Positions 1 through 51,558 of a stretch of 64,000 nt of DNA are shown here, in pieces. A program made the position numbers and the translations under genes. Below the pieces are notes generated by a model. The model did no database searches and was not told where the DNA came from. It was given only the letters and a program-made list of their open reading frames with translations. Numbering within the stretch: the stretch's first letter is position 1; each line of letters begins with the position of its first letter. Source of the stretch: Dipteris shenzhenensis (lineage: Eukaryota); the NCBI GenBank assembly GCA_047967505.1, contig CM106538.1; one strand, 5' to 3'.

Positions 1-1340
1 CCGTCACTCAGCCTCGCTCCCAGCACGTTTTCATTCCCCTTGCTCAGCTTTTAGCCTCCCGTTCAGGTCCCCCCATGTTCTGCCAGGTCCTCTAAACAAA
101 GCAAGGCCACCGCTCAGGTCATCATCGTCTCACCAGAGCTCTCTCAGCCCCTTCTTTTCACTCAGGCCTCTCCTGTCCGAACTGGTAGCAGGCTCCCACG
201 CGAGTGGAGGGACTGCGAGCGGGCTGAAACCCCCCAGCCCATCTCAGCGGGGATTAACTTGCAGGAGAGGGGTCTTTCGAATGTGCATAGGCCAACATGG
301 AGACTCCCAAGGTGCCCAAGCCAAGGCTTGCAACCCCGCCACCCCCGTGAAGCCCTTGAAGCCCATGTATTCATTTGTTGCAGGTTTTACCCCAACTCCC
401 ATCTCATATGCGAAAACCTATCACACGATGAAGCCCCCCGATCCACAAGAGCGTATCTATCACCTTGAACTTGAAGTCTGCAAACTCAAACTTCAGCTTG
501 GGCCATGATATGGAGGGGAATGGAAAGCAAGAGGTCATCAAGGAGGTGCTACAATGGGGAAATGCATCTCCCCCAACATCAAAAGTGAACAAAGTTGATC
601 TATACAGGGAAGTGAAAGAGCAGCAAACCAGAGAAGACAACAAGCAGATCTTGCATGGGGGGGGGGGGGGTACCAGAAGGTTGCCTTGATACAAAGGAGT
701 TCATAGAAGATAAGATCCATTGCCTAAAAGAGAAGATACCACAAGTGGAATGGGATCCAGATGCTATCTGGAATATTGAGCCGAGGGGAACACAAATACG
801 AATCACTCTCAGTGACAAGGCAGCCAAGACCAAGATTCTCCAAGAAACACACAAGCTCAAGAGGACGAAGATATGGATATCTGAGGAACTCACTCCGACA
901 CAAAAGCCAGGAAAGCAGGAAAGTGGGCAGTCTACCAAGATGGGATTGCACTAACTAGAGATCTCGTATCTAAACCTAAAGACCCTCGGTCTTAATCCGA
1001 TGTAATTAAGGCCATTTTTGATACAGTACTAGGACTTACACGCGTCCTAAATAATCTCAAGCTGAGTTGCCATGTCCACTCCTCGAATCTCTAAGTCTCA
1101 GAGATGCAGTAGTGACTCTTTTTGGTGTGTACTCTGTCTCATAGTCCCGTGAGGGCTTCTGAAGCTGTTAATATATCATTCTTTTTTTTATTTCTCTCTC
1201 TCTCTCTCTATGCTCCTCCTCTATACCTGTCCCATCTCATCTCCTAAAGGCACATATTAGGGTCAATAAGGCTTAACAAGGTACCCCTCTCTTGTGCTTT
1301 TTTTTGATAATTCGAATACTACTTCTCACTCTCCCTCAAT
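1..1340 (+). mobile_element. ORF1-only non-autonomous LINE-derived element, copy 1 (5' end cut by the window edge)
   Basis: Nearly identical to 20462-21950 apart from a few internal deletions. Frameshifted ORF1p-like ORF (coiled coil, then KIWISEELT...ARKAGKWAVYQDG), followed by a 3' hairpin at 1136-1175 and a (CT)n tail. Confidence 0.8.
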
Positions 1341-2427: not shown

Positions 2428-3936
2428 ATGGATCCCCATTCAACCAATCTCCGTCCACTTCCACTGGCCGCCAGAACCGTCATTTTTTCAGAAGACGAGT
2501 TGCAGCAGCTCAAGAAAGATGTGGAATTAGAGGGCTCCACATCACTTTTCGCCCGCATCTTTGGGTCACACCCTTCCAGATCACACGCTAGAGACTGGAT
2601 GCTGGCAGCATTACCAGGAGACCTCGCCCCACACCTCAGGGATATTTGACTTTTGGGATGTGGATTCTTCCAAGTGGTTTTCGACTCCCACGAGTCCACA
2701 TCCCTTGTTCTCAAAGCTAATCCCTTGGCTTTGGGTTCGAGGAGGATCTTTCTTTTACCCTACACCTTGGGCTTCGATCCGATCGAGGAGGACAGGCAAG
2801 TCAAATCACTGTTCATTAGATTTCATAGTCTTCCTCAAGTCTACCATCGACTGCTTGCCACTATCGGAGCCACATTCGGAGTGGTCACTGAGATCCCCTC
2901 CCTTCCTCGGCAAAGGCAGTCAGTGCAGACGAGGTGCCTCGTGTTAGGGTCATTGTCTCTGACCCTAACATCTCAGATGACCACATTATGCTTCAATGTC
3001 CAGACGGCTCTCTCTTTCGACAGAGAGTCGAGATTTCAGGTAGACACGACCAATGCAGGATTTGCAAGACCCTTGGGCACTTTGCTAGAGACTGCCCAAG
3101 GAAGATAAAAAGACCCAAGAGGTCTTCTGGTGTGGCTCCTTCACGTACTACCACGACTGCACCTCCCCAGCACCGTGTGCCATGCACTCCAGGACCACCA
3201 AGAGCAACAGGGCGCCCTGCTTTGCGCACCCCAAGACCACCAGGGACAGCAAGGCGCCCAATGCCCGCAGCACACCCAGTACCACGATGGAGAGCTATCA
3301 AAGCGGCTCCCTTACCTCAGGAGGAGACTTTTGATCCTGTTTAGACACACGCCTTCCAGCCTCCAGAGGTGGATGTTGCTACAGCCCCCGACACTACAGT
3401 TCCACATCAGGAGGGGCCTTTAGATCCACCAACCCCGTCACTTTGGTTTCTGACCCCTTGGTTTCTGACCACGAGGGGACTACAGGTACTTCTTCCCCGC
3501 AGATTGTTCCTGCCATAGTCAGGACAACCGAGAAAGTGCAGACGCAGATGAGGGCTCCTGATTCCTCTTCACCCCAACCACAGGCCTCCTCAACCCCCAG
3601 CTCCAGTTCTGCTAATAGAGGCCTGCAGGTCCTTCTGCTCCATCTTCCACGAGTGCAGGTCTTCTTCGCACTCCTCGGCCAGACTTGCTTATCAGGAATT
3701 CTTTTTCGGCATTGGCAAATTCGGCAACTTTCATGGATGATGAGGAGTTTGTGCCCTCCACCGTAGGGGTCCCGGTCATTGGGATTCCTTCTAACAGGGC
3801 CTCCCTTTCAGCAGGTGTGGGGATCCTTTCACCTATTGAGTTTCCTGCCTTCAGTAGGAGTGTTTTGGCCCAAGGGAAGCTGGTCTCCTCCACTAGGTCG
3901 GGTAAGCCTTTCCATCCAGCATCCTACTGTCGATGA
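2428..3936 (+). pseudogene. LINE ORF1 (DUF4283-like region plus CCHC zinc knuckle), disrupted
   Basis: LGCGFFQVVFDS segment and knuckle CRICKTLGHFARDC. Contains stops and frameshifts. Its stop overlaps the ORF2 start as ATGA. Confidence 0.85.
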
Positions 3937-6900
3937 GGATAGTCAGCTGGAACATACAGGGCCTAGGCAGAGTTCCACACCGTCGCCGTAGGCAGCTGAT
4001 CCAGAACCAGCTTCATCCAGGTGTAACTAGAGGTGCTATTGATATCCTTTTTATCCAAGAACACAAGCTGGATGCCAGTGATTGCTCTAAGTATGGCAAA
4101 CTGCTTTCAGGACATACCTTCTGGTCGCCTGCTATGGGCACAAGGGGAGGTACTTGCATTTCGGTCTCTCTTTCTATTCTCCCCTTGGTTGCTGGTCATG
4201 GTATTATCTCCCCTTCTAGAGCTCCATGGATCATTATTTTGATTGGAGGGCGTAAGATTGGTCTTCTCAATCTTTATGCTCCCAACAACAGAGGGCAGCG
4301 AATCTCCTTTTGGAAGGAGTTACTCTCTTGGGCCCCCATTGCAAATTCTTGGATCATTGGTGGCGACTTCAACATGGTTGAGTTGCCTTTAGACAAAAAG
4401 AAAGGCAGACAGGGTGGAATTCATTCTTTGGAGAGGGCAGCCTGGGATGCCTTCCTCTTTCAATTCAGTGGCAGGGACACTTGGTTGGATGATGTCTTTC
4501 ATATTATGCCACAGTCACTCCTGTACTCTTGGTCGAACAGGAGAATACACATGCCCATTCATGCACGAATTGACAGATTTTATGTAGACGATTGGACACT
4601 TGACAGAGGAGGATCTGTATGCATTTCTACTAGGGTTTCCGCCTCAGATCATTTTCCAGTGGTGTTGCAGATTCTTGAGCCTCATCGGAGAGGACGCTCT
4701 GCCAGTGTCACGATTCCGGATGCTTTTTATGCAGAGGAGAGCCTCACGGAGGATATTTTACAGATTTGGGTTTCACAAATAGGATGGAGCTGTCCACCCA
4801 TCTCAGATAGCTGCAGCCTTATCCGGAATTAGTGGCTATTATCATACAGGCGCTGATTCTAGGAGACGTGAGATTCTCAGATGTGAGATTGGTATACGCC
4901 AGCAGTTAGCGTCCCTTCAGAGGGAAGAGCAGAAGAGGCCCACAGATGCTTGGATTCAAGAGCGCCTTGCTGCAGCAAGGGCTCATTTGCAGACATTGTT
5001 GGATCAGAGAGCAGAAAATGCCTTTCATGCACGGGAATCCGTTTGGATTCAGATGGGTGGGAGGGTCAACAAACACCTTTTCTCTACTCATGGACCCAGA
5101 CATAGTAGAGATAGTGTTTCGCAGCTTGTTGACTCAGACGGGGTGTTACAGTCAGATCCTGATGCTGTCATGCGTGTAGCTTCAGATTTTTTTGCATCCC
5201 TTCTTACTGCAGATCCAGGCACACAGGCCATTGATGATGCCAGAGAGGTTATTTGGCAGTGTATCCTTGTATTGGTGAAGGATGAGATGTATGTTTCTCT
5301 GGATGCACCTTTCACCAATGCAGAATTCAAGACTGCATTACTTGCCCTTCACAAGGGCAAGTGCCCAGGTTCAGATGGACTTACCCCCTCCTTTTTTATT
5401 ACTTTTTGGGAGCAAATTGGTGATCACATTACATCAACCCTGCAGGGCATGTGGGACTCTGGTGAGATGCCGGACTCACTTACAGATGGTCTCATTCATC
5501 TCATCCCAAAGGGGGGTAATAGGAATCTTGTGTCTCAATGGAGACCCATCACTCTATTGGGCACTTTTTACAAGATTCTGGCGAAAGCCATTGATCTGCG
5601 CCTACAGGTTTTTCTTCCAGATTTGATTCATGACACGCAGACAGGGTTTGTGCATGGCAGAAGTATTTTTTATAATATTTTCTCATTTTAGGAGGCCTCA
5701 GAATGGGCCATGCAGAGCCGCCAAAGATTGGCCATTCTACTCTAGGACTTTGAGAAAGCTTATGACAGAGTAGACTGGGATTTTTTAGAGGGTACTCTAT
5801 CTCGCTTTGGTTTTTTAGATGCATGGATTAGAGAAGTATCCTCTCTCTACAGATCAGCCCATAGCCAGTTGCTCATTGGGGGGGTAAGAGGAGACAGGTT
5901 TCAGATTTCCAGATCCGTCCGCCAGGGATGTCCTCTTGCCCTATTTCTTTTTCTGTTTGTGGCAGAAGCTATGAGTATCTACATTAGATGCCAATGTCTA
6001 GCAAAAGGCTACAAAAAGAGCCTCTCCCAACCAAGGACATGGATTAGTGAACAAAAACAAGTGGCAATAAAACTAGCCAAAGAATTAAAAGGGAAGGCAC
6101 TTGCAGTAGACTTGCCAATGACACCACCTTTGGTTTTTCAATCAACCAAACCAAGGGAACCTTCAATAAGAAAGTCTCAACCAGAGTTGATTACTAGTGA
6201 GTACTCAAGCCCAAAAGTGATGGGAAACCTTCCATGCTATGAAGGTTAGTATTATTACAACAAAACTAATCTTGATTTCCCCGTATTGTAGAGAAATTGT
6301 TTTTGCAGTGGCTCAAAGTTGAAAAGAAACCACTAGATCTCAAGATTAGATCTCAAGCTGATATTTATGGGCTGAGGCTTGCTATCCGCCGGGAAGAAGA
6401 GCTCTTGGATAGTGAGTTGGCAGATGACACGGCTGTTTTTTTGGATGCCTCCCCCAGGACACTCACTTCCTTCCAGACAGCCTTGGATTTGTTTTGCACG
6501 GCTGCAGTTGCACACATTAATTGGCATAAATCCAATGGTTTTTGGATTTGCGAGGATGACACCCCGGATTGGGGTAATGATATTGGCTTCACTTGGGTAC
6601 AGAGGGGCGTCTCCATCAGATATTTGGGCTGCCAAGTTGGGGTGGGCATCTCTCCTTCACAACAGTTTGCTCCGGTGTTGGAAAGCATCAGAAGAAAGCT
6701 CCTTTTCTGGAGCTCAGCCAAACTTGACTTGGCCTCCAGGGTGGTGGTGGTTAACCACGTTTTTCTAGCCACAGCATGGTTTGTATGCTCTTGTTGGTGC
6801 CACTCTAGGGATTGTATCACTCAGCTTAAGAGGCATGTACGAAACTTTTTATGGAGTGGTCTAGATGGCACAACTGATGTTACAGCCAGGGTGGCTTGGG

Positions 6901-8631
6901 AGACCTTGATTCTTCCTACAAGAGAAGGGGGTTTGAATATCATCGACCCAGATCTACAGTGCAAAGCTTTACTCTGCGAGTTCGTTGTGAGAGGGCTTAT
7001 GCCAGGGCAAGAGCCTTGGAAGGATTTTTTTATCAGATGCATACAATCTCGCACACCCACTTCAGGAGAGGATTGGACACACAGTACTAGATGGGTTTTC
7101 ACCACAGCCCACCTCAGGTCTCCGTCTTCCCCTCTTATGGTTGCTATCCTGAAAGCATGGGCCAACTTCAGGAGTACTCTTCGCAGGATTCCCCCATCCA
7201 CCCGTGAAGAGATTGAAAGGCAGCCTATCATGTAGAATGACAGGATTTTGGATGAGCTTGGAAGACCACTTGGAGCTTCTCCTTACATGCAGTGGCCAAG
7301 ATGGGAGAGGAGCCCTGCATCTACAGTGGGAGCATGGAAAGCCTTCAGGAAGCTTCCTGCAGACCGATAGGCCCAGAGGGCTCTTAATCTCAAAGGGAGT
7401 GCAAGGAGAGTCCAACAGATTGATGCAGCCTTGCCCTTGGATTGGGTGGACACAGATGACATGCCTATTACTTGCTCCACCTGGATGGGGGCATTGGGAG
7501 TTCCTTTACAAGTGATTGCTTTTCTTGACACACATGAGGATGCCTTAGTTTTTTATGTTTCTTCGGGGGGCAGGCTGTCCAGATCCACAGACGATATCTT
7601 GTTGGAGGTACCGTTTCAGCCAGTCAGGATAGTGGGCTTCATGGAGCATGGCTCTCTTTCACAGTGGTACTTGGATCCTGACCCGCTTCTCCTCGCCCTT
7701 GGCTCATGGAGGCTGTGGCTCTATGGAGGTGTCCCAATTAAGTTTTTGCAGTGGGACCCTGGGGAATGGGAATGGATAGATGAAGGGCACCGAGAGAAGG
7801 GCATCCCCTTCTTTCGTTACACGGTCAGTAATGCCAGGAAATCCAGCTCAGCTGTAGGGGTTGGAGGCCCACCAAAGCTCATCATTGGGAGAACTTTCAG
7901 ATTCCTGCTGACTTGCAGAAATTTTTTTGGCAGAGACTCTGCAAATCCCACCGGAATAGAAAAATCACTCTCTTCTTTTGGCTTTCTATTCATGGTGGGA
8001 TAGCAGTAAACCATTGGAGATCCATGTTCGGAGCTGACCCTTCTTGCCCTCGCTGCCTTTCTGCTTTGGAGAAAATACAGCACTGCCTTTGGGATTGCAA
8101 ACAGGCGAGAATCATATGGAAGGGGATTGCAAGACTTTTCAGCATTTTCTTCGCCTACCTTTCTATATGACCTCGGGATCAGTGGCTTGGCTTACTCTTT
8201 CAAGGCCCCAGGCATTTTTTGAGAGACTTGATTCCTCTTGGGCTCTTCACATCCGACGACACCTTGTGGAGTCATGCTCTCTAGAGGATGTTCCGGCCAC
8301 TCTTTTCAGGGCTGCTCACTCCTCGGTCGACTCTCCATGGGAGATCCTAGCTAGCATTGCAGCATGGCACATTTGGAGAGCCAGATGCACTAAGGCTTTG
8401 GAGGGTTCTCAGGTTCACCCTTCTCAGATCTTGGCCAGTACTTGGATAGATACGATACACACTCTGATGGCCATTTGGGCGACCATGCAGGGATCATCTC
8501 GAGCAACCTCCTCCAGGAGAGTTACTTTTCTCAAAGATTGGAGAGACTCTCCCTTCTTTGCTAAGACTTCTACAAGGTTGAGATGGCATTTTCAGCCTCA
8601 GCCTTGGTTTCTTTCTACCTCATTCCTCTGA
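3933..8631 (+). pseudogene. LINE ORF2 (APE endonuclease, reverse transcriptase, zf-RVT), disrupted
   Basis: SWNIQG, QEHK, GGDFN, RIDRF, SDH; WRPITLL, QTGF, RQGCPL, ADDT; CPRC...EKIQHCLWDC. Many stops and frameshifts, plus an insertion at 5990-6344. Confidence 0.95.
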
Positions 8632-8748
8632 GGTGTTTTTTATTACATGCTTAGCATGATGTATTTCCGCACAAAGCTTGCTCTAGCGGGTTCTTTCTTA
8701 CTTAATAGAAGTCTCTTTTTTTGGGGGGAAAAAAAAAGTCACCAACTT

Positions 8749-12200: not shown

Positions 12201-13705
12201 ATCCTGTGGTGGAGCGGGAGAAGGCTCTTGAACAAAAGGCTCCAAAACGGTAGCCTCCCGAGGCTCCTGAGGGGTAGTCTTTGGAGCAACAGAAGTATGA
12301 TCTGAAGTAGAGGGCCTAACCGCAACCGGAACCCACTGGGGGCCACAGGTAGTGCGGTGTGTAGGAGGGACTCAGGCAGCCCTAGGAGGAGAGGGAGCCC
12401 ATGTCTGAGGCGGTGCGTGGAGCGCTAGGTCCTGCTCCTGGTCTCTGTCGTCGTAACCTAGTACGAGCTGGTTGCTTTTTTGGCCTCTTCTTCTTCTTTG
12501 GGCAATCTCTGGCGAACAGCCTGGAGGATCTGTCAATCCTACACTTGTCCTAAAGACTTGCAAACTCAAATCTCTAGCGAAAGAATGACCCATCGGGTCA
12601 CTGTAGCATGATGTGGTCATCTGAAATGTTAGGGTCCTCGACAAAGACCCTAACCCTGGGTACCCCATCCATCCTGACCGCCTCAGCAACCGACGAAGGC
12701 TCGCCACGAAGAGGGGGGATCTTTGCTACCACACCAAATCTCGCCAATAATTGAAAGAAGCCGGTGATAAACTGAAGGTAGACCAGGGAACCTGATGAAG
12801 ATGGAAACTCCGTGCTTGTCCTCTTCAACTGGGTCAAAGCCCAATTGAAACGGAAATAAAAAAATCATCCTGTAGCCTAGAAAGAGAAACCTAGTCTGTA
12901 GCAAGTCTCTAGTGATGTCCACGGAATCTGGGCACACCTGAAAGAAACCTTGTCCCAACAAACGTACATCCTTAAGGTGGGAAGCGAGCTCCTGAGGAAG
13001 TGCCGCATGCATCCATAGCCTGTGATTTGGAGGGGTGGGAGCCATAGATGCGTGTGAAGAGAGTCGTGAAACACTCATGCTCCAAATCCTTTTGCAACTC
13101 CTGCAGCTCGTCTTTTGAGAAAGTGACGGTTCTCGCGGCCTGTGTGTGCGGTAAGGGATGGACTGAATGGGTACCCATACGTCAATCAAGGTGGGAAAGG
13201 CCGACTCAAACACAAAGAAACTCCGTCCACCTTCCTGAAGCCCACGAGACCCCCAAAAAATAGGGGGTACACCTGATGAAGGGAGAGGGTGAAAGGAGGG
13301 AGGGAGACAAGATTGAGCAAGGAGGGAGAATGAATGAGGGGGAGGAGTCAGAAAGGAGAAAGGGAGGGCAGCAAGAGGGAGAGGGGAAGGGAAGGGGGCA
13401 GGAGGAGGAGAGGAGGGGAGAGGAGGGGAGGGGAGCAAAGAAACAGCGTGAGGAGGGGGGGGGGGGGGGGCTGTGCAGGCAGCAGCATGGGGGGAAGGGG
13501 GGGGCACGTAGGCAGGCAGCAGCGCGGGGGGGGGGGGCTGCACAGGCAACAGCGCGGGGGGGAGGGGCTCCAGCAGCGCACGGGGGAGGGACTGGCAGCA
13601 GCGCGGGTAGGGGCTGCAGCAGCGCGGGGGGTAGGGGAGGGGAGAGAGGGAGGGGAGGCGGGGAGGAGCAGCAGGTAGGGGGGAGGGGAGGGAGGAGGCA
13701 GCCCT
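9273..13705 (-). mobile_element. Second L1/Tx1-type LINE of the same family, 3'-truncated and decayed
   Basis: ORF2 starts at 11813 (MRIASWNIQGLG). WRPITLL, LDFKKAYDRVDW and QGCPLAP are colinear with the first LINE. ORF1 relic at about 11810-13180. C-rich 5' UTR on the minus strand. Confidence 0.93.
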
Positions 13706-13728
13706 CAAGGTTCTTCGACAATCTTACA

Positions 13729-14040
13729 ACCTGAGAAACTCACACGAGCTCAATTGAAGAACAAGGCAATGGAATTAGCCAAGGTTAAGGCTGCTAGGAA
13801 GGATGGAAAATGAGCGGTATACTGTGAAAGAATAGCAACTATCAAAGAGTTTAAATCCAAACCAAAGGACTCTCAGTCTTAAACTGATGTATGGCTGATT
13901 ATGTGAATTTTAGACTATTATGTAAATACTCTAAATAATCGGAGTTGCTTCTTGTACTCCTTGGGAGCTCCCATGCGCCCCTGTCCCATAGACCCATTGG
14001 TCTCCCATGGACATTAATAGACTCTCTCTCTCTCTCTCTC
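13729..14040 (+). mobile_element. 3' remnant of a diverged ORF1-only element
   Basis: Translates EKLTRAQLKNKAMELAKVKAARKDGK*AVYCERIATIKEFKSKPKDSQS*, homologous to the end of the 21325-21612 ORF. 3' hairpin at 13983-14019, then (CT)n. Confidence 0.75.
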
Positions 14041-14642
14041 ACCCGCTCAGCTCCCTCACCCGCTCAGCTCCCCCTCAGCCTCTCCCGCTCGCAACAGCTC
14101 CCTCACCCGCTCGCAACAGCTCCCTCACCCGCTCAGCCTCTCTCGCTCCAGCCTCTCTCGCTCGCAACAGCTCCCTCACCCGCTCAGCCTCTCTTCTCTC
14201 CCCTCGCAACAGCTCCCTCACCCGCTCAGCCCCTTCCCCCTCCGCCTCTCTTCTATCCCTCACCCACTCAGCCCCTTCCCCCTCCCCCTCCGCTTGCGAG
14301 ACGCCCCTTCCCCCTCCCCCTCCGCCTGCTGTCTCGCAACAGGCTCCTCGTGCCTCAGCTTCTCCCTCGTGCTCAGCCCCGCAACAGCTCCCTCGCAAGC
14401 CAACAGCTCCCTGCGCAAGCCTCTGTTGGAAGGGAAGTTTAAGGAAAGTCTTAAACTTCTCTCCCCCCCCGTGTGAATAGACTTACAGCAAGTGTCCTTA
14501 AAGCGCAGGAAAAACAGCGCAGAAAACAGAGCAGTTTTGAGGGCAAAAGGAGGCAGTTTTGAGAGCAGAGAATTCAGCAGCTCCACCATGGCCCTTAGAG
14601 GCAGTTTTGAGCAGAGAATTCAGCACTTCCAGGAGTAAGGAG

Positions 14643-16220
14643 ATGCCACAAACAAGGAGCTCCACCATGGCCCTCCAAGGAGCAAAAGTAGAGAAAGATA
14701 AAAGCATAGGCAGCAGTACAAGAGCCGAAGAGGTAAGTTCTTCTTTACCCTTAACATCTCCTTCCCCACCACCTCCAACGACCTCCCTTGCCTCCACCCC
14801 AACCCTTTCCTACCCATCTACTTTACTCAATCCTCCTGTGGCTCCGATCCCATCTCCTTTACTTCCATCTCCCCCATCACTTCCGGTCACCTCCCTTGCC
14901 TCAATCCCAACCCTTTCCTACCCACCTCCTCTACTCAATCCTCCTCCTCTCCCTCCTTCAGTCTCACCTCCTCCTCTTGCTCCCGTTCATTCCTCCCTAG
15001 CCCTTTCCCTTGCTTATTCCTCCCCTCTCCTAGTCCCTACCCATCCTCTTCCTTCCTCTTCCTCCCCTCCCCTAGTCCCTACCCATCCTCTTCCTTCCTC
15101 TTCCCCCCCTTCCCTATTCCCTACCCAGCCTCCTCCCTCCTCTTCTTCCCCTCCCCTAGTCCCTACCCAGCTTCTTCCCACCTCTCCCCACCGACCCTCC
15201 CTTTCAGCCCCTTCCTCCCCTAGTGTAGGCTCTTCTTCGGTCCCTGACTCCCTACTTCCTTCTACCGGATCTCTCTCTTCAGGACCTCCATTTTCTGCAC
15301 CCCTCCTTTACTCACCTTCTTACCCTCTTACCCCCTCATCCTTGTACCCCCTCTCCCCTTCACCAGCGGAAGCAGTCCTGGCAGATAATCTGCGATTGAG
15401 AGATTTAGTTATGCAGTGCATGGAGACTTGCAGACTTCAGGGCGCTGCGATTCAGTCTCTCACAGCACAGATACACACACTGACTGATCAGTTATCGACA
15501 GTTGAGAGTCATAGATCTGATCAGGACTCCCATATTCGCCAGCTTCATACCAGAGATATTGATCGGGATATCTAGTTACGGACACATGCTGAGCGCATAA
15601 TGCAGCTGGAGACACGTATTCAGGAGCATGTTGTGGCATGCGATGATCGCCTCCAGCAGCTGCATGTAGCTCCTCCAGCTAGTGCAGCAGTTGAGGAGAG
15701 GTTGGCCACACTGCAGACAGAGGTACAGAAGACCTCAGAGTGGGTGGACGTTGTGCATAGAGCCCCACAGGCCCAGCAGACCACAGTCTCTGAGACTATT
15801 GCCGAGAGTCAACGGCGAGCTCAGAAGGTCCTCAACATCCGCATCCGCGGAGTTGAGCGATCAGATACGAGATCAGCCATGGATCAGGCGACAGATTTCA
15901 TATCTGGGACACTCGGAGTTCAGGATCATGGCATAGTAGCTGCATATCGAGTGGGCCGGGATCCAGCACGGCACCAGCCACTTATCATCAGATTCAGAGA
16001 TGCTGAGGCCCGTCTCGCAGTATTACGAAGGAGATCCAGATTGAGGGACCATCCACAGATTCACATGGATGAGGACCTTACAGCTCTTCAGTGGGAGGAG
16101 CATAGACGTCTCATTGCACAGAGGGATGTTGCCCGTCGTGAGGGCAAGTGGGCCGTGATCAGAGAGGGCAGACTTTTGATAGGAGCTATGCGATCTAGAC
16201 CGGCTGGAGCCCACAGTTGA
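14643..16220 (+). pseudogene. LINE ORF1p: Pro/Ser-rich region, coiled coil, RRM/CTD (Transposase_22-like); one in-frame TAG at 15573
   Basis: NIRIRGVE...AYRVGR...PLIIRF...IHMDEDLT. The ORFs on either side of the TAG are in the same frame. Confidence 0.85.
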
Positions 16221-16259
16221 CGACACGAGGCCTATGGGACACGTAGTCTGCCAGATAGC

Positions 16260-19200
16260 TTGAGTTTCGCAGTTTGGAACTGTAATGGTTCCCTCACAGC
16301 TCAGCCTGGCAACTTACGAGAGGCCTTTTTTGATCAGGACATCGTCTTCTTTACAGAGACCCATGAGAGCCCAGAGAGAGGCTTGCCGCAGGTGACAGGG
16401 TATGCCTGGGAGTCTGTCTTTCGACAGCAGACTAGACGATCAGGAGGAGTCAGAGGATCTGGCGGTGTGGCAGTTCTTTATAGAGAGCATCTCAGATCGA
16501 TACTCACAGTCATGAGCAGAGACCATCGGGCCAGATATCTTTGGGTACGGATCAAGAGACCCCCCCTGAGAGACTTGTTTATTGCAGTATGCTACTTTCC
16601 CCCGAGACAGTCTCGTTATGCCTCAGATGGACCAAGACAGTCACCTTTTGAGGATTTGTCAGCCGATGTATTGGAGTACTCACGCCGCGGAGAGGTCATC
16701 CTTTTAGGAGACTTCAACGCGAGGACATCAGACAGACAGGCAGAGATTTTGGACTTTGCTGAGGATCCAGTCTTAGTCCCAGCTGCCCCAGATGAGAGTT
16801 TTCCACGCTTATCTTCAGATAGAGGGGTAGAGGTGACAGATCAGGGACATCGCCTATTGGAGCTTCTCTCATCGCACGGCATGGTCATTTATAATGGACT
16901 TCGACAGTGGCCGCATTCATCCACAGCCACATGTTTTCCCTTCGCGGGTGGTGGTACGAGCGTCATTGATTACGTCTTGGGTCCCCCGACTTTAATCCCT
17001 TTTGTACATAACCTCACAGTCGACCCTTTTATGCCTTCAGCCGATCATGCACGTCTGCACTTTATTCTTACCCAGATTCCTCATGCCCTCCCTTCTAGAC
17101 ATCATGAGCGTCAGCCATACTATGAGGTTCATTTTGACCACCAGTTTGATGATATTTATAGCCAGCACCTGAGTGGTCTTCTCCGTCCGCACCTTCTCGA
17201 TGCCCTACCCTCCACACAGGATCGGTGGGACCTTGTACATACCTCCATCATCTCAGCAGCCCACAAGTCCTTCCCCGTCACTTGCCACACATCCAGTCCT
17301 CCACCAGTCGGTCTTGTGCCTTGTAATGGATGGTATGATGAGGAGTGTAAAGAACTCCGCAGGAAGCTTCGCCTTGAGACACAGGAGAAGTCTCCCCTCC
17401 TCATTGAGACCAAGAAGAGTTACAAGCGTTTGGTGCGACGCAAAAAGTGCCAATTTCTAGCCCGGAATGAGGAGGAGCTGAGAAGTTTACTTTTCAGCTG
17501 TGATTCCAAGGAATTCTGGAAGAAATTCCTTCGCTTGAAATCTCAAACTCCTCTTACAGACCCGCAGGTTTGGCTTGCCTATACTTCCACTTTATATGAT
17601 ATTCCAGACCAGCCACAGATCGACTTATCCCATGTGCCTAGACCCACCTCCTCTGCCTTATTCTCATCCAATAGTGTCCGAGCAGCAGCTCATCGTTTGA
17701 AGACTGGGAGAGCTAAGGACCATGATGGATTGCAAGCGGAGTATGTAATCCATGGGATTGATGCCTTAGCTACAGTCCTCTCCCGTCTTTTTAACGAGTC
17801 CATTTGTACAGGTCTTCCACCTAGTTGGCTAGAAAATACCATAGTACCCATACACAAGTCGGGGGATCCTTTGGAGGCGTCGAACTACAGGACCATTATG
17901 ATTGGCCATGTCATGGCCAAGATTTATGCGACCATTCTAGAAGGACATATAAATGACCATGCCGAGGCGACAGGCATGAGAGCTAGAGGGCAGGCAGGAT
18001 TTCGTGCAGAGCACTCGACTCTAGATCATATCTTCACACTCAGGGCTTTGATTGAGGAGGCGAAGTCACGTAAGCAACGGCTCTATTGTTGCTTCGTGGA
18101 CTTCAGAAAGGCATTTGACACTGTGCCGCGTTTCAGACTCTTCCAGCGACTTCGTGACTTGGGATTCAATGGGGAGATTCAATGGGCGATCATGGCCTTG
18201 TATGAGAGAGTCACAGGTAGAGTCAGGACACGGGCGGGGCTGTCGGCGGAAGTACGCAGAGTACGATAGGGGTGAAGCAGGGGTGTCCTTTGTCTCCGAC
18301 ACTCTTTGGTCTCTATATCGATGAGTTAGAGATGTACATACAGACGATGGGTGGTACAGGTTCTTTACTGGCAGGATCCACGATACCGATTCTCCTCTAT
18401 GCAGATGACGTGGTTCTTATTTCTTACTCCCAGCAGGGTTTACAGGCACATCTCCATGCACTCCACAGCTTTTGTCAGGACAGAGGGTTGTCTGTAAACC
18501 TTGGGAAGACCAAAGTCATGGTCTTCAACACGTCATACCAGGTTTATAGGAGAGGCGAGTTCTCTTTCACATTTGATGGGCAGGAGGTGGAGCTAGTTAG
18601 GGAGTATACATATTTGGGTGCCACATTTAGAGGTCCAGTCTTCACCATGACGCATGCAGCACGAGATAGGATCAGTAGAGGGTATGCCGCCTTGGCTCTT
18701 CTCGAGAGGCAGTGTGCACAGTCACATTTTCAGCATCCCGACACGAAGTCCTTACTTTTTGATACGCTGGTGAGACCTGCAGTCATGTATGCTAGCCCCT
18801 TTTGGACAGGAGATCTCAGGGTTGCAGATTGGAGACGAGTAGAGAGGTTACAGATCATCATGTTCTCCAGATTGATCAGAGCGAAGCCCACGGTACCGCA
18901 TCAGATTACGTTCGCAGAGTTCGGAGCTACACCCCTAGCGCTAGATGCAGCATTTCAGTCAGTTACGTACTTGCATAGGATCAGGGCGCTCGGAGACTCA
19001 GCAGCAGGCAGAGCACGATTACCGTGGCTAGCACTGACATCCTCGCAGATGTTAGCGGAGAGAGGTCATACTTTTTGTTGGTACCACACACTCTCCACAT
19101 GGCTCACCTCGCTGGGCTTGGATATGGATAGGCTGCCACCATTTCGATACAGCATAGATGCCCCTCGCCTCCCTCTCACTCGACATGAGCTCAGCCAGGT

Positions 19201-20029
19201 TATCAGGGCAGATTTGTTGCAGCTACACACGTTTCGCACTTGGGTTCATCCCACGGAGCTTCCTACGAAGATGGCCACATATCGTGACCATTTTCTCAGG
19301 ATTTCAGAGGATGGCTTCATCATATCCCCAGGATATATCGGCGTTCATATGTCGCACTCACTCAGGATTGCCTTGGGCCAGCTCAGGGTATCTTCCCACA
19401 GATTAGACGTTGAGGCCGGCAGGATGCGTCGTACAGCTACCGGACATAGACCCAGGCGAGAGACTAGGATATGCCCTTGTTGCACTATGGGGGAGGTGGA
19501 GACTGAGGAGCACTTTGTTTGCAGATGCCCTTTATATTATGAGATCCGTGGCAGATTTCACTGTTTATTTAGGCACGGATTTGGACCTCTCTCTCGGATT
19601 ATGGAGTATGAGGATCAGTATTGCTTAGCGTTGTTCATCAGGGAGATCACCAGATACAGAGAGAGATTCCTCAGAGAGCACCGTCGCATCCCTGCCAGAG
19701 ACCTGGTTATTCATGAGGAGCAGGACGAGGCGCAGGACCATGAGCACAGAGATAGCCCATCTTGCCAGAGAGCACCGATGGTTCCACCCCGAGGATGTAC
19801 ATATGACATGATCCGGCAGCACCGCAGGATGATCTTACACAGAGGCCGTACCCGTCGCTTTATTTCTAGACGACGGAGGATGATGGCAGATTTTCGGAGG
19901 AGATTGCTCCATGGAGACTTGGCACCGCCAGCAGCCCATTTGACACTTGCCCAGATCTTCACACTCATGGCAGGAGGCATGGTCGATGGCCATGACTTCC
20001 ATCATTTCTTTGGATCACAGACCCCTTAG
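16260..20029 (+). pseudogene. LINE ORF2 (APE, RT, C-terminal CCHC); single frameshift near 18258
   Basis: WNCNG, ETH, LGDFNART, VIDY, SADH; NYRTI, QAGFR, VDFRKAFDTV, GVKQGCPLSP, YADD; SSHRLDVEAGR...RICPCC...ETEEHFVCRC. Removing 2 bp restores VRSTIGVKQG. Confidence 0.93.
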
Positions 20030-20275
20030 GGAAGACGATGTTCCTCATATTTCATATTTTACATTTTGTATCTAGGCAATTTTGGTACTCTATTTCATTT
20101 CATTTTGTATCTAGGATTTTTGTAGCCATTTTTGCCATCTTAGCGGTATTACGATGAGGCCACCTAGTTGGCGCATCGTTGATGATGTATTTTCCTTTCG
20201 GATGATTTTGTGTCCCATAGGCCATGTATGGCCTTCCGTGGACCTTTAATAAAATTTCTTTCTTTCTTCTTTCTT

Positions 20276-20315
<40 letters not shown>

Positions 20316-20318
<3 letters not shown>

Positions 20319-20432
20319 TGCTATCTTGTATGCAGAGTTCTTGATGTCCCATGGGCCCTTTTTGGCCTCTAGTGGACAATAATACACTTTCTTTCTTTCT
20401 TTCTTTCTCTCTCTCTCTCTCTCCCCCCCCCC
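20316..20432 (+). repeat. Extreme 3' stub of another element of the hairpin family, with (CTTT)n(CT)n tail
   Basis: GTCCCAT-GGGCC...GGCCT-ctag-TGGAC-aat-AATA followed by the microsatellite. Confidence 0.7.
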
Positions 20433-21950
20433 GGCGTAGCTCCTCACTCCGTCTCCTCACTCCGTCGCTCAGCCTCGCTCCCAGCAAGTTTTCATCCCCC
20501 TTGCTCAGCTTTTAGCCTCCCGTTCAGCCCATTTTTCCCCTCATTTAGCCCGTTTTCATCAAGCAGGTCCACCAAGGAGTTCACCGCAACACGCTCTCTC
20601 GTCTCAAAGAGAACAGAGCTGCCGCTCAGGTCCCCCCACATTCTGCCAGGTCGTCTAAACAAAGCAGAGCCACCACTCAGGTCATCATTGTCTTGCCAGA
20701 GCTCTCTCAGCCCCTTCTTTTCACTCAGGCCTCTCCTGTCAGAACTAGTAGCAGGCTCCCAGGTGAGTGGAGGGACTGCGAGTGGGCTGAAACCCCCCAG
20801 CCCATCTCGGGGGTTAACTTGCAGGAGAGGGGTCTTTGTGATCTGCACAGGCCAACATGGAGACTCCCAAGGTGCCCAAGCCCAAGGCTTTCAACCCCGC
20901 CACCCCCGTGAAGCCCTTGAAGCCCCTGTATTCATTTGTTGCAGGTTTTACCCCAACTCCCATCTCATATGCGAAAACCTATCACACGATGAAGCCCGCC
21001 CCCTGATCCACAAGAGCGTATCTATCACCTAGAACTTTAAGTCTGCGAACTCAGACTTCAGCTTGCAGCTTTGGAAAGGAAGGTCCACGATATGGAGGGG
21101 AATGGAAAGCAAGAGGTCATCAAGGAGGTGCTACAATGGGGAAATGCATCTCCCCCAACATCAAAAGTGAACAAAGTTGATCTATACAGGGAAGTGAAAG
21201 AGCAGCAAACCAGAGAAGACAACAAGCAGATCTTGCATGTGGGGGGGGGGGGGTACCAAAAGGTTGCCTTGATACAAAGGAGTTCATAGAAGATAAGATC
21301 CATTGCCTAAAAAAGATACCACAAGTGGAATGGGATCCAGATGCTATCTGGAATATTGAACCGAGGGGAACACAAATACGAATCACTCTCAATGACAAGG
21401 CAGCCAGGACCAAGATTCTCCGAGAAACACACAAGCTCAAGAGGACGAAGATATGGATATCTGAGGAACTCACTCCGACACAGCTCAAGCAAAGAGCCAC
21501 TGAACTCGTAAAGGTGAAAGAAGCCAGGAAAGCAGGAAAGTGGGCAGTCTACCGAGATGGGATTGCACTAACTAGAGATCTCGTATCTAAACCTAAAGAC
21601 CCTCAATCTTAATCCGATGTAATGAAGGCCATTTTTGATACAGTACTATGACTTACACGTGTCCTAAATAATCTCGAGCTGAGTTGCCATTCCACTCCTC
21701 GAACCTCTGAGTCTCAGAGATGCAGTAGTGACTCTTTTTGGTGTGTACTCTGTCTTATAGTCCCGTGAGGGCTTCTGAAGCCGTTAATATATCATTCTTT
21801 CTTTTATTTCTTTCTCTCTCTCTATGCTCCTCCTCTATACCTGTCCCATCTCATCTCCTAGAGGCACATATTGGGGTCAATAAGGCTTAACAGGGTACCC
21901 CTCTCTTGTGCTATATTTTGATAATTCGAATACTACTTCTCACTCTCCCT
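20433..21950 (+). mobile_element. ORF1-only non-autonomous element, copy 2 (more complete)
   Basis: Begins directly after (CT)n. Frameshifted ORF1p-like ORF ends KPKDPQS* at 21612. Hairpin at 21752-21790, CT tail, then a further 130 bp shared with copy 1. Confidence 0.85.
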
Positions 21951-23412
21951 CATCTGTCTATAAGCCAAAGGCCGCTGAGGATCTCGTTGATGTCTTCCCT
22001 GGTTTGCTTACATACTTGCACAAAACTGGTCAACAAATCCAATCGTCAAGCAGTATTTCACAAATGGCTGTTCTAGCCTCATCGTTTGTGTCTCAATCAT
22101 TTTATGGATGGGTGAATAAGGCTTTCACCAGCCCACAGACCAAAGGTGTTAAGGACAAGAAAATCTTGAGAGTTGGAATAAGAGAAACACAGTAAGAGTG
22201 AGTTTTGTAGGTAGACAAAACTCCTAATTGATGGCCCAAATTCCTGAATGATGGCACTAGCTCAAATTTGTCGATTCTCTTCAATCCAAATGAGACAACA
22301 AAGATAGATTGACCTTTCGGCCACAAAACAGACAGGAATCATTGTTTCAACCACATAATTTCTCAACAGGTAACTCAGGAGCCCGAAAACAAAACAGTAA
22401 AAACAAACAGGCACTCACTTTTCTGTCATTGATGTTGACAACAGAAACACTCTCCACAGCCTTGTCCCTACAAAGTCCCAAACCCTTAATGTGAGTAGGC
22501 CGCGTGGAAATCCAAGTACTGAAGCACACTTAGCTTGTCCAAACTTTTACTGCAGCACGTGTAGCTAAGAACAATCTTAACTAAAGAACTAAGATACCTT
22601 ACAACAGCCTCAGTCGAACAATTCGCTCCCGCAATTGAAGAGGCCCTTGACAGAAAATCCTGCAGCAAAAAAATTTGTAGAAATGAAAACTCCAGTCAAT
22701 TTGTATAGGCAAAAGCAATAAAGAGAATGGCCAGGTTATCTGCCAAATAATAATGACGTTTGTGAAAAAGGAGTTGCTTGAAATAAAGAAGTGCCTGCCG
22801 TGTCAGATCTGGGCATGATGGAAGGAAATTGAAAAAGGAGCGAGATGACAAGGCAAATTTGTGGAATGTGGGGTTAAAAGGCCAGCTCTGTTGGGAAGCA
22901 GCAAACATTGAAATAGAAACTGGTTGCTGAAGAAGATTTGTGGTTACTAGACTGATGGACGGTTATCCAGATTCAATCTTTGGGCTCTCTGATCAACTGC
23001 TTGGACAAACACATTGAAGCTAGACGGGCAGTCTAACATTGTTCAAGTTGCGAGCGACCAATGTCTACGGCCATCAAACGTTGAGTACGTTTCGTATATG
23101 GAACAAAAAGAGGACATAACTTCTAATCTTCCCTATGCTGGGAGGGCAATATGAAAAGATAAGAGGACTTGCCTTGAGCTTTTCAGAGAATTGTGCCTTA
23201 ATACCTTTGAAGCTGACAGTAGATAGATGAGCAAAAATACATACAGTTCTTTCTAGTGATTCTAGGTTCAGGAAGAACGAAACTGTCCTCTTGGGGGGGG
23301 GGGGGAGAACGAAACTGTGCCCACCAACTAAGGTTCGTCCATACTTTATCATTGGCGGAAAAAAGAGTCCTGCGATCAAACCGGTTATAGATATTAGAAC
23401 TGAGAAATAAAC

Positions 23413-28271: not shown

Positions 28272-31200
28272 TGTTAGAGACTCACTGTGCCCACCTGTGA
28301 GCCCCCATTTTGAGGGGACAAGGGGCACTGAGAGGTAGGAGGGCTGGGAAAGAGAGACCCAGGCAAACATCATAGGCAACCAGTACACGGGCTGGTTGCT
28401 GTCTGCAAACAGCAGAGAAATAGGGGGGGCCCTGTGCCTCCCTGGTCCCATGGACTGGCTGCATAGGGCACCCTTTTATAGGGGCCTGTGGCAGGGCCAG
28501 TCGGCCCAACCAGGGCCACTGACCAGGGCCGACCCTGGTCGGATTTCCAGAACAGTTTGGTCAGCCACCAGTCAGCTGACCCTACTAGTCGGCCAATCTA
28601 GAGGGCCTGGGCAGTGCCTATAAAAGGCCCACTCCTTCCTTCAATCCAGCATCCAGTGCAAGATAGAAAGCCTCCTTCATAGGCTGTGCTGTGCACTCAG
28701 AGCTGGTCCAGTCTAATAGAGAGAGTTCCATCAGTTCTCCTCAGCACTTGGCAGAGTTTTGTATTGCTCCCCTAGAGCCAGTTTTCTGCCCACCATCCGG
28801 TGGATGAATATATTCTCTCTCTCTATTTAAATTATCTCTGAGTGAGTGTTTATTGCATCTGTGATCGGTTATCTGAGTTGAGTGTCAAGAAGAGCGGGAG
28901 AGACCTTGGCTGGAGGTTTGAGTGATTCATTCCCTCCTATTTTTCAACATGGTATCAGAGCCATAGGCTCTCAACTCTTCCTCATCAAAGCACTCTTTGA
29001 AGGAAGGAGTCCCTTGGCAGTAAGGCGACTCTGTTTTCAGCTCAAGCTAGCACAGAAGGTCAATACATTTATTTCTGTTTCAGTTATTCAATTTTGCTAT
29101 TCACCGAGATGGATCAGCGTTCCCTCTACATCCATTGCTCATCCTTCCTCCTTCTCCAATCATCTTCCTTCTTCATTCATCCCCAATTTCAGTGAAGCTG
29201 GAAAGCTCGATGGAATGAACTATCCAATCTGGAAAGTCAAGATTCGAAGCCATCTGTTGGCACGGAGGTTGTGGAAGATTGTGAATGGGACCGAAGAGAA
29301 GCCGGAGGACATTGTGGACAAAAGAGGTGAAGTTTTAGTTGAAGCAGATGCAGATGAACTCTGTGCATGGGAGGAGAGGGATGCTCAAGCCTTAGCAATG
29401 CTTATAGGCACGATAGTAGCTGTGATTCCTCATATCCAATTGGCAAAGACGTCTTCAGAGGCGTGGGCCATACTAAAGGAGCTGTATGAAACCGATAATA
29501 CAGCTCATATCATTACACTTCAGCATCAGCTTTCTAATCTTGATATGAATGAGGGTGATAGTGTGCATGATCATCTGACAAAGGTGAAAGTTGTGCGGGA
29601 CCAGCTTGAGGCGATTGGTCAGAAGGTGAACACGAGTCAATTGGCGTTGCTCACACTCCACAAATTGCCACAGAGTTTCAAAAGTTTTGTGACTACGGTC
29701 AGCAGTGCGGGTCAACGGACTAAGCCGATCACCTTTGAGGAGCTTGGTCCACTCCTGCTTCAGGAGGAGGCTTGAGAGAAACTCTTTACGCAAACCGATG
29801 AGAAGTCATTAGTTGCCAAAGACAAGCCTGGAAAAGGCAAGCCAAAGGATTCCAAGAAATCAAAGGACGCTGAACGCAAGAAGAAAATGAAGTGCTTTTA
29901 ATGTGATGATTGGACAATTATTTTTACTCAGTGAACATTGTTCAGCATATGCACATGTCCAATAGAAGGACTTGGTTCAAAATCATGGAAAGTACACACC
30001 CGGATTCCAAAGTTTCTGTCGGGATAGCCGAAGATGTCCTATGAAGGGCATCGGTAGCATTCCTTTCATTACAATGGCGGGTGAGGAGAAGGATATCTAT
30101 GGAGTACTTTATGTACCCAACCTTTGCAAGAATTTACTGTATGTAAGTCAGATGGACAAAAACAACATGGTAGTTCTCTTTCAAGATGGCAAGGTCACTG
30201 TAACTTCCAAAGGCAATGGGCAGCTGGTGGCTCAAGGTGTTGAAGAGAATGGACTGTACCGTCTCAGTGCAATGTTGGTTCATGAAGACAACAGAAAGTC
30301 CAAACTTTGGCATGAGCGCTTCGGTCATGTCAGCTATGGAATCTTGGCTGAAATGTCAAAGTCGAAGTTGGTGGATGGACTTCCACCAATTACAGGCAAG
30401 GATGAAGTCTGTAGGGCTTGTCTAGAAGGCAAGTAGTACAGGGATAAGTTCCCACAAGAGGCCTCATTTCAAGCTAGCAAACCACTTGAGTTGGTTCACA
30501 CCGACATTTGTGGTCCAATGTCTATAGCATTGTGGGCAGGACCCAGGTACTCACTTCTCTTTGTTGATGATTTCAGTAGAATGACCTGGGTATATTGTTT
30601 GGCTAAAAAGTCTCAGGCTTTCGAGAAATTCAAAGACTGGAAGGCCAGAGTTGAAAAGGAGACAGGGGAGGATGTCAAGACATTCCGCATAGATAGGGGG
30701 GGAGAATTCACCTCAAGTGAGTTCAACACATTTTGTCGCAAGCATGGGATCAAGCGACAACTCACCACGGCACATACTTCTCAGCAAAACGGGGTAGCCG
30801 AGAGGAAGCATAGAACCACCATAGAGATAGGGCTTGCTATGCTCTGAGGGAGGAATCTTTCTAAAGCCTATTGGAGTGAAGCTATCAATACAGCCGTACA
30901 CATTCTCAACCGGACCAAGACGAAGGCCGTCAAGGACAAGACTCCATATGAGGCATTTTATGGTAAGAAGCCCTCTATCACTCATCTTCGCATTTTTGGT
31001 TCTAACGCATGGGTGCATGTGCACAAGGAAGACATGACCAAGCTTGATTCCCGGAGCAGAAAATGTATCTTTGTTAGGTATAGTGAAGAATCCAAGACCT
31101 ACCGCCTCTTCGACCAAGTAAAGAAGCAAATCCTTATCAGTCAGGATGTTGTCTTCTCGGAAAAAGAACCTAAACCCCAGGAGGAGCCTCAGATTGAGGA

Positions 31201-42469: not shown

Positions 42470-43124
42470 TCATCAGTAATCGTCTTTTTTTCTTTTTTCC
42501 AGTTCACTGAGAGTCTATTTTTAGGGACTTATATAACCTTTTAGGGCACCCTCCTAGTCCTGCGGAGTTATACGGGTATATGACGGGTACTCTAAACACC
42601 CCCTAGGAGTCGGCACTACAGACTCCAAACCACCCCACACCAGTTGAGATTACCCCAGCGGAGTCAGCACAACCCAGTCGGCTACACTACCGAGGCCCTT
42701 CTCCCATGCCATCTTATGCCCCTTCCCCCATGCCGTCTTATGCCCCTTCTACCATGCCGTCTTATGCCCCTTCCCCCATGCCGTCAGGAGGTCCTTCTGT
42801 CTCGCAGAGCCATCGACGTACTCTTGTGAAGTCGAGACTCAGTTCTCCAGCTACAAGTGGTCCACGTAGTCCCGTGTAGTCTCCAACTACGAGTGGCCAG
42901 CGTACTAGCTCGACACGACACGATAGCAGGTGAAGTAGCAGGGAGAGCAGTGGGGGATGCATGGCACAGTGCTTTGGGAGGGGTGGTGGTGGGGACGATG
43001 ATGATTCAGATGATTTAGACATGCCTCCGGGTGATGGTATGATATTCTATGACATCACTCAGACAGGAGGCATCTTGATGGAAACTCCTAACTTCAGGCA
43101 ACCCACCATAGTTGAGAGCATCCG
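42470..43124 (+). pseudogene. Ser/Pro-rich N-terminal fragment of the putative second CACTA gene, with 21-bp tandem repeats (PSPMPSYA-like)
   Basis: Follows pyrimidine-rich splice acceptors and lies between CACTA repeat clusters and the hAT junction. Its position mirrors 56400-58006 in the second CACTA. Confidence 0.45.
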
Positions 43125-50992: not shown

Positions 50993-51035
<43 letters not shown>

Positions 51036-51517
51036 GATATGATTGTATTAATGTCCTCGTGAGACTTTTCAGGATCTATGGGACAGTGATCACTATCAAC
51101 AAGTAGTGATTATTTACATCCATTGACAGAAAATAGCATCAATAAAAGCATAAATGTGCTATGGAGTGAGTACTTGTTGTGCTAGCCTGTGTGCTAGACC
51201 AAGTACTTTGTTGCGATATTCTAAAATTTCCTTTATGTAGTTGCCTAGCTCTTTGGCTGGCCACTCCAGTAGGGATTTTAGGTTGCTTCTATTGCCCCCA
51301 TAACATTCTCTGATTTGCGCATATGCTCGACATGTTAGGAGTACATGCTGCTCATTTTCTACTTCTCCTGTGGGGCAGATTTTACATAGTCTTTCCTCTC
51401 TTGGTACCCTGGGTCTTGCCCATCTTCCCCTCTCCACCTCGAGATCATGTGACCTGGTTCTAATTTTATAGATTAAATGCCTTTCAAATATTGATATGTC
51501 TTCCTTGAGGTGTTTCT

Positions 51518-51558
<41 letters not shown>
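50993..51558 (-). mobile_element. 5'-truncated RTEX-like LINE fragment flanked by (GA)n on both sides
   Basis: SHDLEVERGRW...REERLCKIC...ENEQHVLLTC matches the ORF2 C-terminus of 14041-20315; family 3' hairpin at 51046-51084. Confidence 0.88.

Follow-up and report, generated by a model that had tools for sequence, protein, structure and literature searches.

What does a short hairpin do that recurs at the 3' ends of otherwise dissimilar retroposons? The question is raised by a 64,000-nucleotide (nt) stretch of Dipteris shenzhenensis DNA (contig CM106538.1 of assembly GCA_047967505.1; "the window" denotes this whole stretch), in which a hairpin element of 40-45 nt closes RTEX-like long interspersed elements (LINEs) as well as elements that encode only the first LINE open reading frame (ORF1). 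The hairpin is a real 3'-end element of these retroposons and part of the mobile unit. It is probably a cis-acting template-recognition signal, read by the ORF2 protein (ORF2p) of a stringent-type clade of RTEX-like LINEs; that ORF2p would be the reader is argued by analogy with LINEs of the L2 clade. An earlier reading of the same letters, made without database searches (the sequence-only reading), had proposed such a signal and is probably right in outline.

A two-helix hairpin at retroposon 3' ends

All six hairpin sites named by the sequence-only reading are present where it placed them (Table 1), and a strict pattern of the motif occurs four times in the window, against 0.01 occurrences expected from 100 dinucleotide shuffles. 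The carriers are two RTEX-like LINEs (LINE A and LINE C), three ORF1-only copies (H0, H1 and H2), two of them with a common flank, and one 100-nt stub. The original count of six elements has to be lowered: H1 and H2 have 94% identity, and some 130 nt past their tails are also common to both, so the six sites represent at most five insertions. H1 and H2 are probably one insertion that was duplicated, the alternative being a 3' transduction carried by both. Their common post-tail stretch opens with a TGTCCCAT-like word, after which the hairpin motif is left incomplete.

Across 31 aligned rows, the consensus runs from GUCY through YAU (31 of 31 rows) into a stem of 5-6 base pairs (bp) with a loop of 2-4 nt, followed by 3-6 unpaired bases, RGAC, any one base and UUAAUA (22 of 31). 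Two helices are thereby arranged around an asymmetric internal loop. The terminal loop is the most variable part, with 16 different loops of 2-4 nt among the 31 rows, and beyond the outer stem a T/G-N pair shows no conservation, being paired in 14 of them.

The two nested helices are predicted in four of the window copies, with outer-pair probabilities of 0.64-1.0 and shuffle z scores of -1.8, -3.3, -1.9 and -0.2. In the remaining two, H1 and H2 (1136 and 21752), the outer stem reads GTCT/AGCY, with a compensatory U-A at pair 4 and a U.C mismatch at pair 2. The claim that an outer stem closes the structure therefore stands for the four copies and lapses for these two, where the predicted pair probabilities stay below 0.1. 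Other details were also revised. The stem AGGCCAT/ATGGCCT given for 20212 would leave a 2-nt loop, and the fold has 6 bp and a 4-nt loop instead; a (CT)n array follows AATA closely at 13983 only, the other copies first having (CTTT)n, (CATAT)n or a T-rich repeat.

The region 13500-22500 has no Rfam match at E<=1, and neither of the two L1 elements in the window has a match to the motif model at its end. A pattern scan of viral contigs returned five matches without a tail, which were taken as chance; the best of them was scored at E 0.76 by the model. Short inverted repeats, recognised by eye, lie just 5' of the main hairpin in H0 (about 13960-13975), LINE A (20153-20180), H2 (21706-21722) and LINE C (51110-51088, minus strand). 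They are unrelated in sequence and possibly form a second, non-conserved stem.

Position in loci outside the window

Seventy-five metagenome loci (labelled L with a number) were chosen by their ORF2 C-terminal protein alone, using a narrower ORF2 C-terminal alignment because the broad one had no usable conserved stretch, and were scanned with a covariance model for which the six window copies were the only training set. The model gave 22 matches at E<=0.001. Seventeen lie 162-597 nt 3' of the ORF2 match that retrieved the locus, on the same strand; two more come after a second ORF2 end, and the other three are stubs standing on their own. A position away from element 3' ends, and a lack of covariation in a larger set, had been named beforehand as the outcomes that would overturn the sequence-only reading; 19 of the 22 outside matches lie 3' of an ORF2 end, as it had claimed. 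A CT-rich repeat, read by eye, comes after 20 of the 22. The loci are partly redundant (L006, L008 and L011 are at least 97% alike), and 10-12 families are estimated.

These positions bear on the idea that the motif is a DNA target site beside which elements insert. New elements often start just 3' of a hairpin and its tail, at 14040, 20315 and 20433 in the window and likewise in L006, L015 and L028. The motif, however, always follows the end of an ORF1 or ORF2 or belongs to a stub, at a family-specific distance; in L056 it has travelled with a stub into unrelated ORF2 sequence; and the bare (CT)n from which LINE C and L021 start is not preceded by a hairpin. A DNA target site is therefore very improbable and largely refuted.

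Pairing and covariation

Within the window alone, both sides change in only two of the nine pairs, so it is the outside loci that carry the case for covariation. Because plain MAFFT puts the variable loop out of register, two other alignments were used: one fitted to the model, with 26 distinct rows and nine pairs, from which about 14 weak, mostly chance matches were left out, and one anchored on sequence alone, with 31 rows (28 distinct), which avoids fitting to the model.

In the model-fitted alignment, pairing holds in 97% of cells, compared with 12-57% when the register is slid. There are 10 cells with double changes, against 2.0 in shuffles, and none of 500 shuffles comes up to that number; RNAalifold recovers both helices. 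In the sequence-anchored alignment, mutual information with average product correction over 703 column pairs places inner pair 6 (A-U/G-C) first, outer pair 4 (C-G/U-A) second and inner pair 3 seventh; ranks 3-6 are non-paired columns, which makes a phylogenetic background visible. Among the 28 distinct rows, decayed copies included, one-sided changes mostly preserved a wobble pair: 23 of them kept pairing, as did 14 double changes, and 17 cells were broken. On the ORF2 tree, the two sides of outer pair 4 change together on the same two branches. Covariation is thus found in a larger, protein-selected set, in which the two top column pairs are predicted base pairs.

Relatedness could produce part of this signal. 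If the motif were simply inherited or swapped with the tail, its pairing incidental, one would understand why most pairs are near-invariant and only three of nine change on both sides, why non-pairs occupy ranks 3-6, and why two window copies do not fold. Such an origin sits poorly with one-sided changes that mostly keep wobble pairs, with top two column pairs that are both base pairs and lie in different helices, and with the two helices found by RNAalifold in the model-fitted alignment; we regard it as improbable. The predicted paired structure is well supported, yet on a handful of events, and with so few independent changes the covariation falls short of R-scape-grade proof.

ORF1-only elements share the hairpin with LINEs

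The hairpins of H0, H1 and H2 lie 100-140 nt after the stop codon of an ORF1 homolog, with no ORF2 between. H0 and H2 are collinear through ORF1 and the untranslated region (UTR), at 59% over 352 columns. The UTR of LINE A 5' of the hairpin aligns with none of the others (p 0.24-0.55), and LINE C against H0 is weak (p 0.05). The proposed link between LINEs and ORF1-only elements is accordingly borne out at the sequence level, the 45-nt motif being the sole 3' part in common. An origin of the ORF1-only elements as internal deletions of LINE A was rejected, since they belong to a separate ORF1 clade and, in the 3' UTR, have nothing but the hairpin in common with the LINEs.

In an ORF1 tree of 38 rows, 32 of them selected from 115 hits, H0 and H2 group, with a support of 70, with 16 proteins that are mostly compact and no longer than 269 amino acids (aa); the same clade plus one longer protein has a support of 98, and the four LINE-linked ORF1s lie outside it. 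The compact proteins, which come without DNA context, may all belong to ORF1-only elements. P0068, an intact 265-aa relative on a 1524-nt contig, likewise comes without DNA context; together with P0189-P0214 it represents a diverse clade of compact ORF1 proteins of 230-270 aa that includes the window's ORF1-only elements. Pfam does not recognise ORF1 and has no family for the compact clade, and for P0068 the ESM Atlas has unnamed clusters only. Human LINE-1 ORF1p gives the best PDB matches to a profile built from six ORF1s, and these are weak (E 0.01).

The window's ORF1-only copies are broken, H1 and H2 are possibly duplicates, and diverged relatives occur in sequencing-run contigs, whose coverage does not extend to the hairpin of the ORF1-only elements. 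With an ORF1p homolog only, no ORF2 remnant and a LINE-type 3' end, these elements are HAL1-like. HAL1 proper, which is derived from L1, was rejected as a label: their ORF1 aligns with RTEX-like ORF1, and the ORF1s of the window's L1 elements are of the DUF4283/zf-CCHC type. The hairpin of H0 matches that of LINE C at 30 of 35 positions and that of LINE A at 29 of 35, against 23 of 35 for its ORF1 relatives H1 and H2, whose own hairpins agree with those of the U-A type in outside LINEs at up to 29 of 35 positions. The tail thus goes with the LINE partners, not with ORF1 descent.

Recognition by ORF2p and its alternatives

A paired structure that is kept between LINE families with non-aligning 3' UTRs, and that is common to ORF1-only elements, counts in favour of template recognition. 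In the proposed mechanism, ORF2p would bind the two-helix hairpin, probably through the invariant AU of the internal loop and the downstream UAAUA, not through the terminal loop, since so variable a loop cannot set specificity. With recognition placed in the internal loop and 3' flank, families could mobilise one another's copies. The (CUUU)n, (CAUUU)n or (CU)n repeat would then pair with the nicked (AG)-rich target strand and prime reverse transcription, and ORF1-only elements would retain the signal so as to be copied in trans with borrowed ORF2p.

The same hairpin could be a conserved RNA with another job, such as ORF1p packaging, 3'-end formation or stability, with ORF2p selecting its template through the ribonucleoprotein or the terminal repeat. 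The structural and positional evidence fits this equally well. All sharers encode the same type of ORF1p, the terminal loop that gives specificity in ZfL2 is not conserved here, and UUAAUA resembles an AU-rich cleavage/polyadenylation element. What makes such a role unlikely is the place of the hairpin directly before the priming repeat, as in tested stringent LINEs, the lack of poly(A) after the repeat tails, and the fact that the H0 hairpin tracks co-resident LINEs instead of its own ORF1 lineage, as expected with a trans-acting LINE protein.

Several results weigh against recognition by ORF2p or against the structure on which it depends. The outer helix of H1 and H2 is not predicted to form (z about 0). 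Double changes occur in only three of nine pairs, a number that 55 of 500 shuffles also reach. The chance that two two-change columns share their branches, calculated for 18 tips with the stub row left out, is about 0.01 per pair and about 0.1 over ten pairs; the deep nodes of the ORF2 tree have supports of 21-41, and tail swapping could have spread one historical change. The motif is also incomplete in its distribution: of the 43 loci that continue for 700 nt or more downstream, 15 carry it (11 at E<=0.001), and among those with an intact, full-length ORF2-end match the figure is 7 of 11. Among the misses, L017 is interrupted by an antisense element, and in L030 and L048 the 3' UTR is readable but lacks the motif. 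Finally, CT arrays stand at 3 of 42 rough 5' boundaries of outside loci (1.9% at random), many of which are not true junctions.

Tails, targets and nested arrays

The repeat encoded by the elements is (CTTT)n, (CATTT)n, (CATAT)n or (CAAAT)n, and the L006 family often ends there without (CT)n; the (CT)n is partly target DNA and not tail. All four identifiable 5' junctions in the window abut a CT array, in one case with a C run between, and in L006, L015, L021, L028 and one sequencing-run contig elements likewise begin beyond a CT array or where a previous element ends. Nested arrays built in this way, on CT arrays or on the ends of older same-clade elements, lie at 13733-21823 and 50993-51558 in the window, at the start of L006, in L015 (825-1726), in L021 and in L028 (1150-1450).

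LINEs insert by target-primed reverse transcription, and pairing of the RNA repeat with the target strand would give a preference for CT arrays. Such pairing may favour insertion into (CT)n, including the tails of earlier elements, and so build the nested array at 13.7-21.8 kb. With 3 of 42 outside boundaries near CT, this targeting is not clade-wide, and the L056 stub, inserted in non-repeat sequence, is a clear exception; strict (CT)n specificity across the clade was considered and is not supported.

The RTEX-like LINEs and the ORF1-ORF2 junction

LINE A shows the hallmarks of RTEX, namely an APE endonuclease and a reverse transcriptase (RT) in ORF2, a substantial ORF1 and a microsatellite tail, and its RT region is only 25% identical to that of the window's L1. 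The RTEX label is one that we assume from a C-terminal motif and the architecture, not from a tree with reference RTEX elements. The C-terminus of the LINE C ORF2 is 38% identical to that of LINE A. RTE-X elements have been annotated in Marchantia and Ceratopteris (bioRxiv 10.1101/827881, PMC6890710).

This copy of LINE A has an in-frame TAG in ORF1 (15573-15575) and one frameshift in ORF2 (near 18221-18269). All four sequencing runs have contigs that agree with it to 99% or better, and two of these contigs reach 20250, where the tail begins; the family is therefore young. The N-terminal part of its ORF1 (14760-15370) is long, Pro/Ser-rich and repetitive and includes a tandem repeat of 42 nt. 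Past the Cys/His motif, the C-terminus of A-type ORF2s is extended by a basic stretch rich in Arg (19690-20029), which LINE C and distant homologs do not have.

Table 1. Positions of the hairpins, the elements that carry them and the ORF1-ORF2 junctions (window coordinates unless a locus is named)
Feature	Position	Strand	Remarks
Hairpin of H1	1135..1174	+	outer stem degenerate; T-rich/(CT)8 tail to 1209
Hairpin of H0	13982..14019	+	outer GTCC/GGAC, inner AGACC/GGTCT
Hairpin of LINE A	20211..20251	+	followed by (CTTT)n(CT)17 to 20314
Hairpin of 3' stub	20345..20384	+	stub 20315..20422
Hairpin of H2	21751..21790	+	outer stem degenerate
Hairpin of LINE C	51046..51085	-	followed by (CATAT)n(CT)18
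H1, ORF1-only	1..1209	+	5' end outside window; broken ORF1 remnant about 297-995
Post-tail stretch common to H1 and H2	1210..1338 and 21824-21952	+	about 130 nt, diverges beyond
H0, second ORF1-only family, 3' fragment	13733..14039	+	ORF1 C-terminus 13733-13882, 100-nt UTR, hairpin, (CT)9
LINE A, RTEX-like, apparently full-length	14040..20314	+	starts directly after (CT)9 of H0
ORF1 of LINE A	14643..16220	+	Pro/Ser-rich N-terminus, coiled coil, L1-ORF1p-like part
ORF2 of LINE A	16221..20029	+	APE endonuclease, reverse transcriptase, C-terminal Cys/His motif
ORF1-ORF2 junction of LINE A	16218-16223		TGA-CGA
ORF1-ORF2 junctions of outside loci	L006 1340, L012 752, L030 2074, L014 1		
3' stub of another family	20315..20422	+	class not assigned; about 100 nt between two CT arrays
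H2, ORF1-only	20433..21823	+	about 1.4 kb; broken ORF1 about 20857-21612 ending in TAA; 140-nt UTR; no ORF2 remnant
LINE C, RTEX-like, 5'-truncated	50993..51520	-	(CT)18-19 on both flanks

ORF1 and ORF2 lie in one frame and are joined by TGA-CGA or TGA-CGG in all five junctions available, which suggests a candidate for programmed readthrough. UGACGG is a type II viral readthrough context (PMC13517186), and reinitiation is the mode used by those LINEs in which this has been tested (PMC5972666). In LINE A, no in-frame ATG precedes the WNCNG motif of the endonuclease; the other four junctions have one 2-12 codons on, so reinitiation is also possible. The window's ORF1-only elements end in TAA.

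A broader picture can be sketched tentatively, and we hold it to be doubtful. An old and diversified ORF1-only lineage might live on several RTEX-like LINE families through a signal of two-helix shape in which the loop is irrelevant, its tail being renewed to match the active LINE. The host LINEs would produce ORF2 solely in the form of an ORF1-ORF2 fusion, through UGA-CGR readthrough of the kind used by plant RNA viruses, and the ORF1-only elements may be suppliers or competitors of free ORF1p in mixed particles.

Other features of the window

The window consists mostly of transposons in plant nuclear DNA, with remnants of L1, copia, CACTA-type and hAT-type elements and a gene of the LOB-domain kind. 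A copia remnant lies at 28882-31537; CACTA-type and hAT-type transposase remnants and the intronless LOB-domain gene are among 38580-40685, 43112-43651 and 63305-63838. The closest named relatives of the LOB-domain gene are from liverworts, at 64-67% identity, which points, without placing it firmly, to a host that is probably a land plant without seeds. Two diverged (66-75%) L1-type elements with a DUF4283/zf-CCHC ORF1 stand in opposed orientation, at about 1340-8740 (plus strand) and 13739-9276 (minus strand); the first ends in a short A run, and the second adjoins the truncated 5' end of H0.

Comparison with known systems

Template choice of LINEs has been tested in few clades, and no such study for RTEX was found in the literature searched. 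The writings on RTEX that were covered, with Repbase Reports, subscription papers and supplements outside that scope, contain no 3' hairpin, ORF1-only partner or readthrough. The hairpin provides a precise 45-nt candidate, backed by covariation, with natural variants, a young LINE family and a non-autonomous partner, which makes stringent recognition in RTEX testable. The finding would place RTEX-like elements among the clades from which ORF1-only partners arise. The covariance model is, in addition, usable as a marker for annotating such 3' ends in non-seed plant genomes.

The RTEX or RTE-X clade comprises RTE-related LINEs with a substantial ORF1, an ORF2 with APE and RT, and a microsatellite tail (PMC3905857, PMC3747384), as here. 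In the accounts available, green-algal RTEX tails are (CA)n, (CAA)n, (CCAT)n, (ACAATG)n or (CTTGTAA)n, whereas those described here are CT-rich, and unlike in that clade the ORF1 here is L1-ORF1p-like and gave no esterase hit. Insertion into CT-rich microsatellites recalls microsatellite-specific LINEs of the Kibi/Koshi kind, which belong to a different clade, have strict target specificity and are recognised by more than 20% of insertions falling in one repeat type; the junctions here are read as a preference only.

Mammalian HAL1 depends on the relaxed, poly(A)-type L1, whereas the partner LINE here shares a structured signal. HAL1 (from L1), HeT-A (Jockey) and Ag-Sponge (CR1) resemble the present elements in encoding ORF1p only, in their LINE-type 3' end and in needing ORF2p in trans (PMC5786205, PMC3627910, PMC5753468). 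In the part of the survey by Kojima (2018, PMC5786205) that was available, ORF1-only elements are listed with Jockey, L1 and CR1 origins, and RTEX is not among them.

UnaL2, ZfL2-1 and ZfL2-2 of the L2 clade, with their short interspersed elements (SINEs), likewise have a 3' stem-loop before a short tandem repeat that is common to autonomous and non-autonomous members (PMC4176376). The analogy with UnaL2 drawn by the sequence-only reading holds in these respects and breaks down at the loop: in the ZfL2 LINEs the terminal loop sets specificity (PMC4176376), whereas here it varies most, in both length and sequence, and the fixed unpaired letters lie in the internal loop and 3' flank. An L2-type tail, with a single stem and a family-specific conserved terminal loop, differs from the two helices and 16 loops found here. 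The partners, too, are protein-coding and not tRNA-headed SINEs, and the system is known here from sequence alone.

Among plants, LINE1-1_ZM, of a monocot L1 lineage, with ZmSINE2/3 and RTE-1_STu with the TS SINE come close, with a conserved, shared terminal 45-50 nt that contains a hairpin with compensatory changes (PMC3472496, PMC3747384); their signal, like this one, was deduced by comparing sequences. As described there, they belong to the L1 or RTE clade and have a CGAG flank, a UCU loop and a single stem, against two helices here. The principle of a stem-loop shared by LINEs and their dependants is thus already known from plant LINE/SINE pairs, and it is met here in a little-studied group of LINEs.

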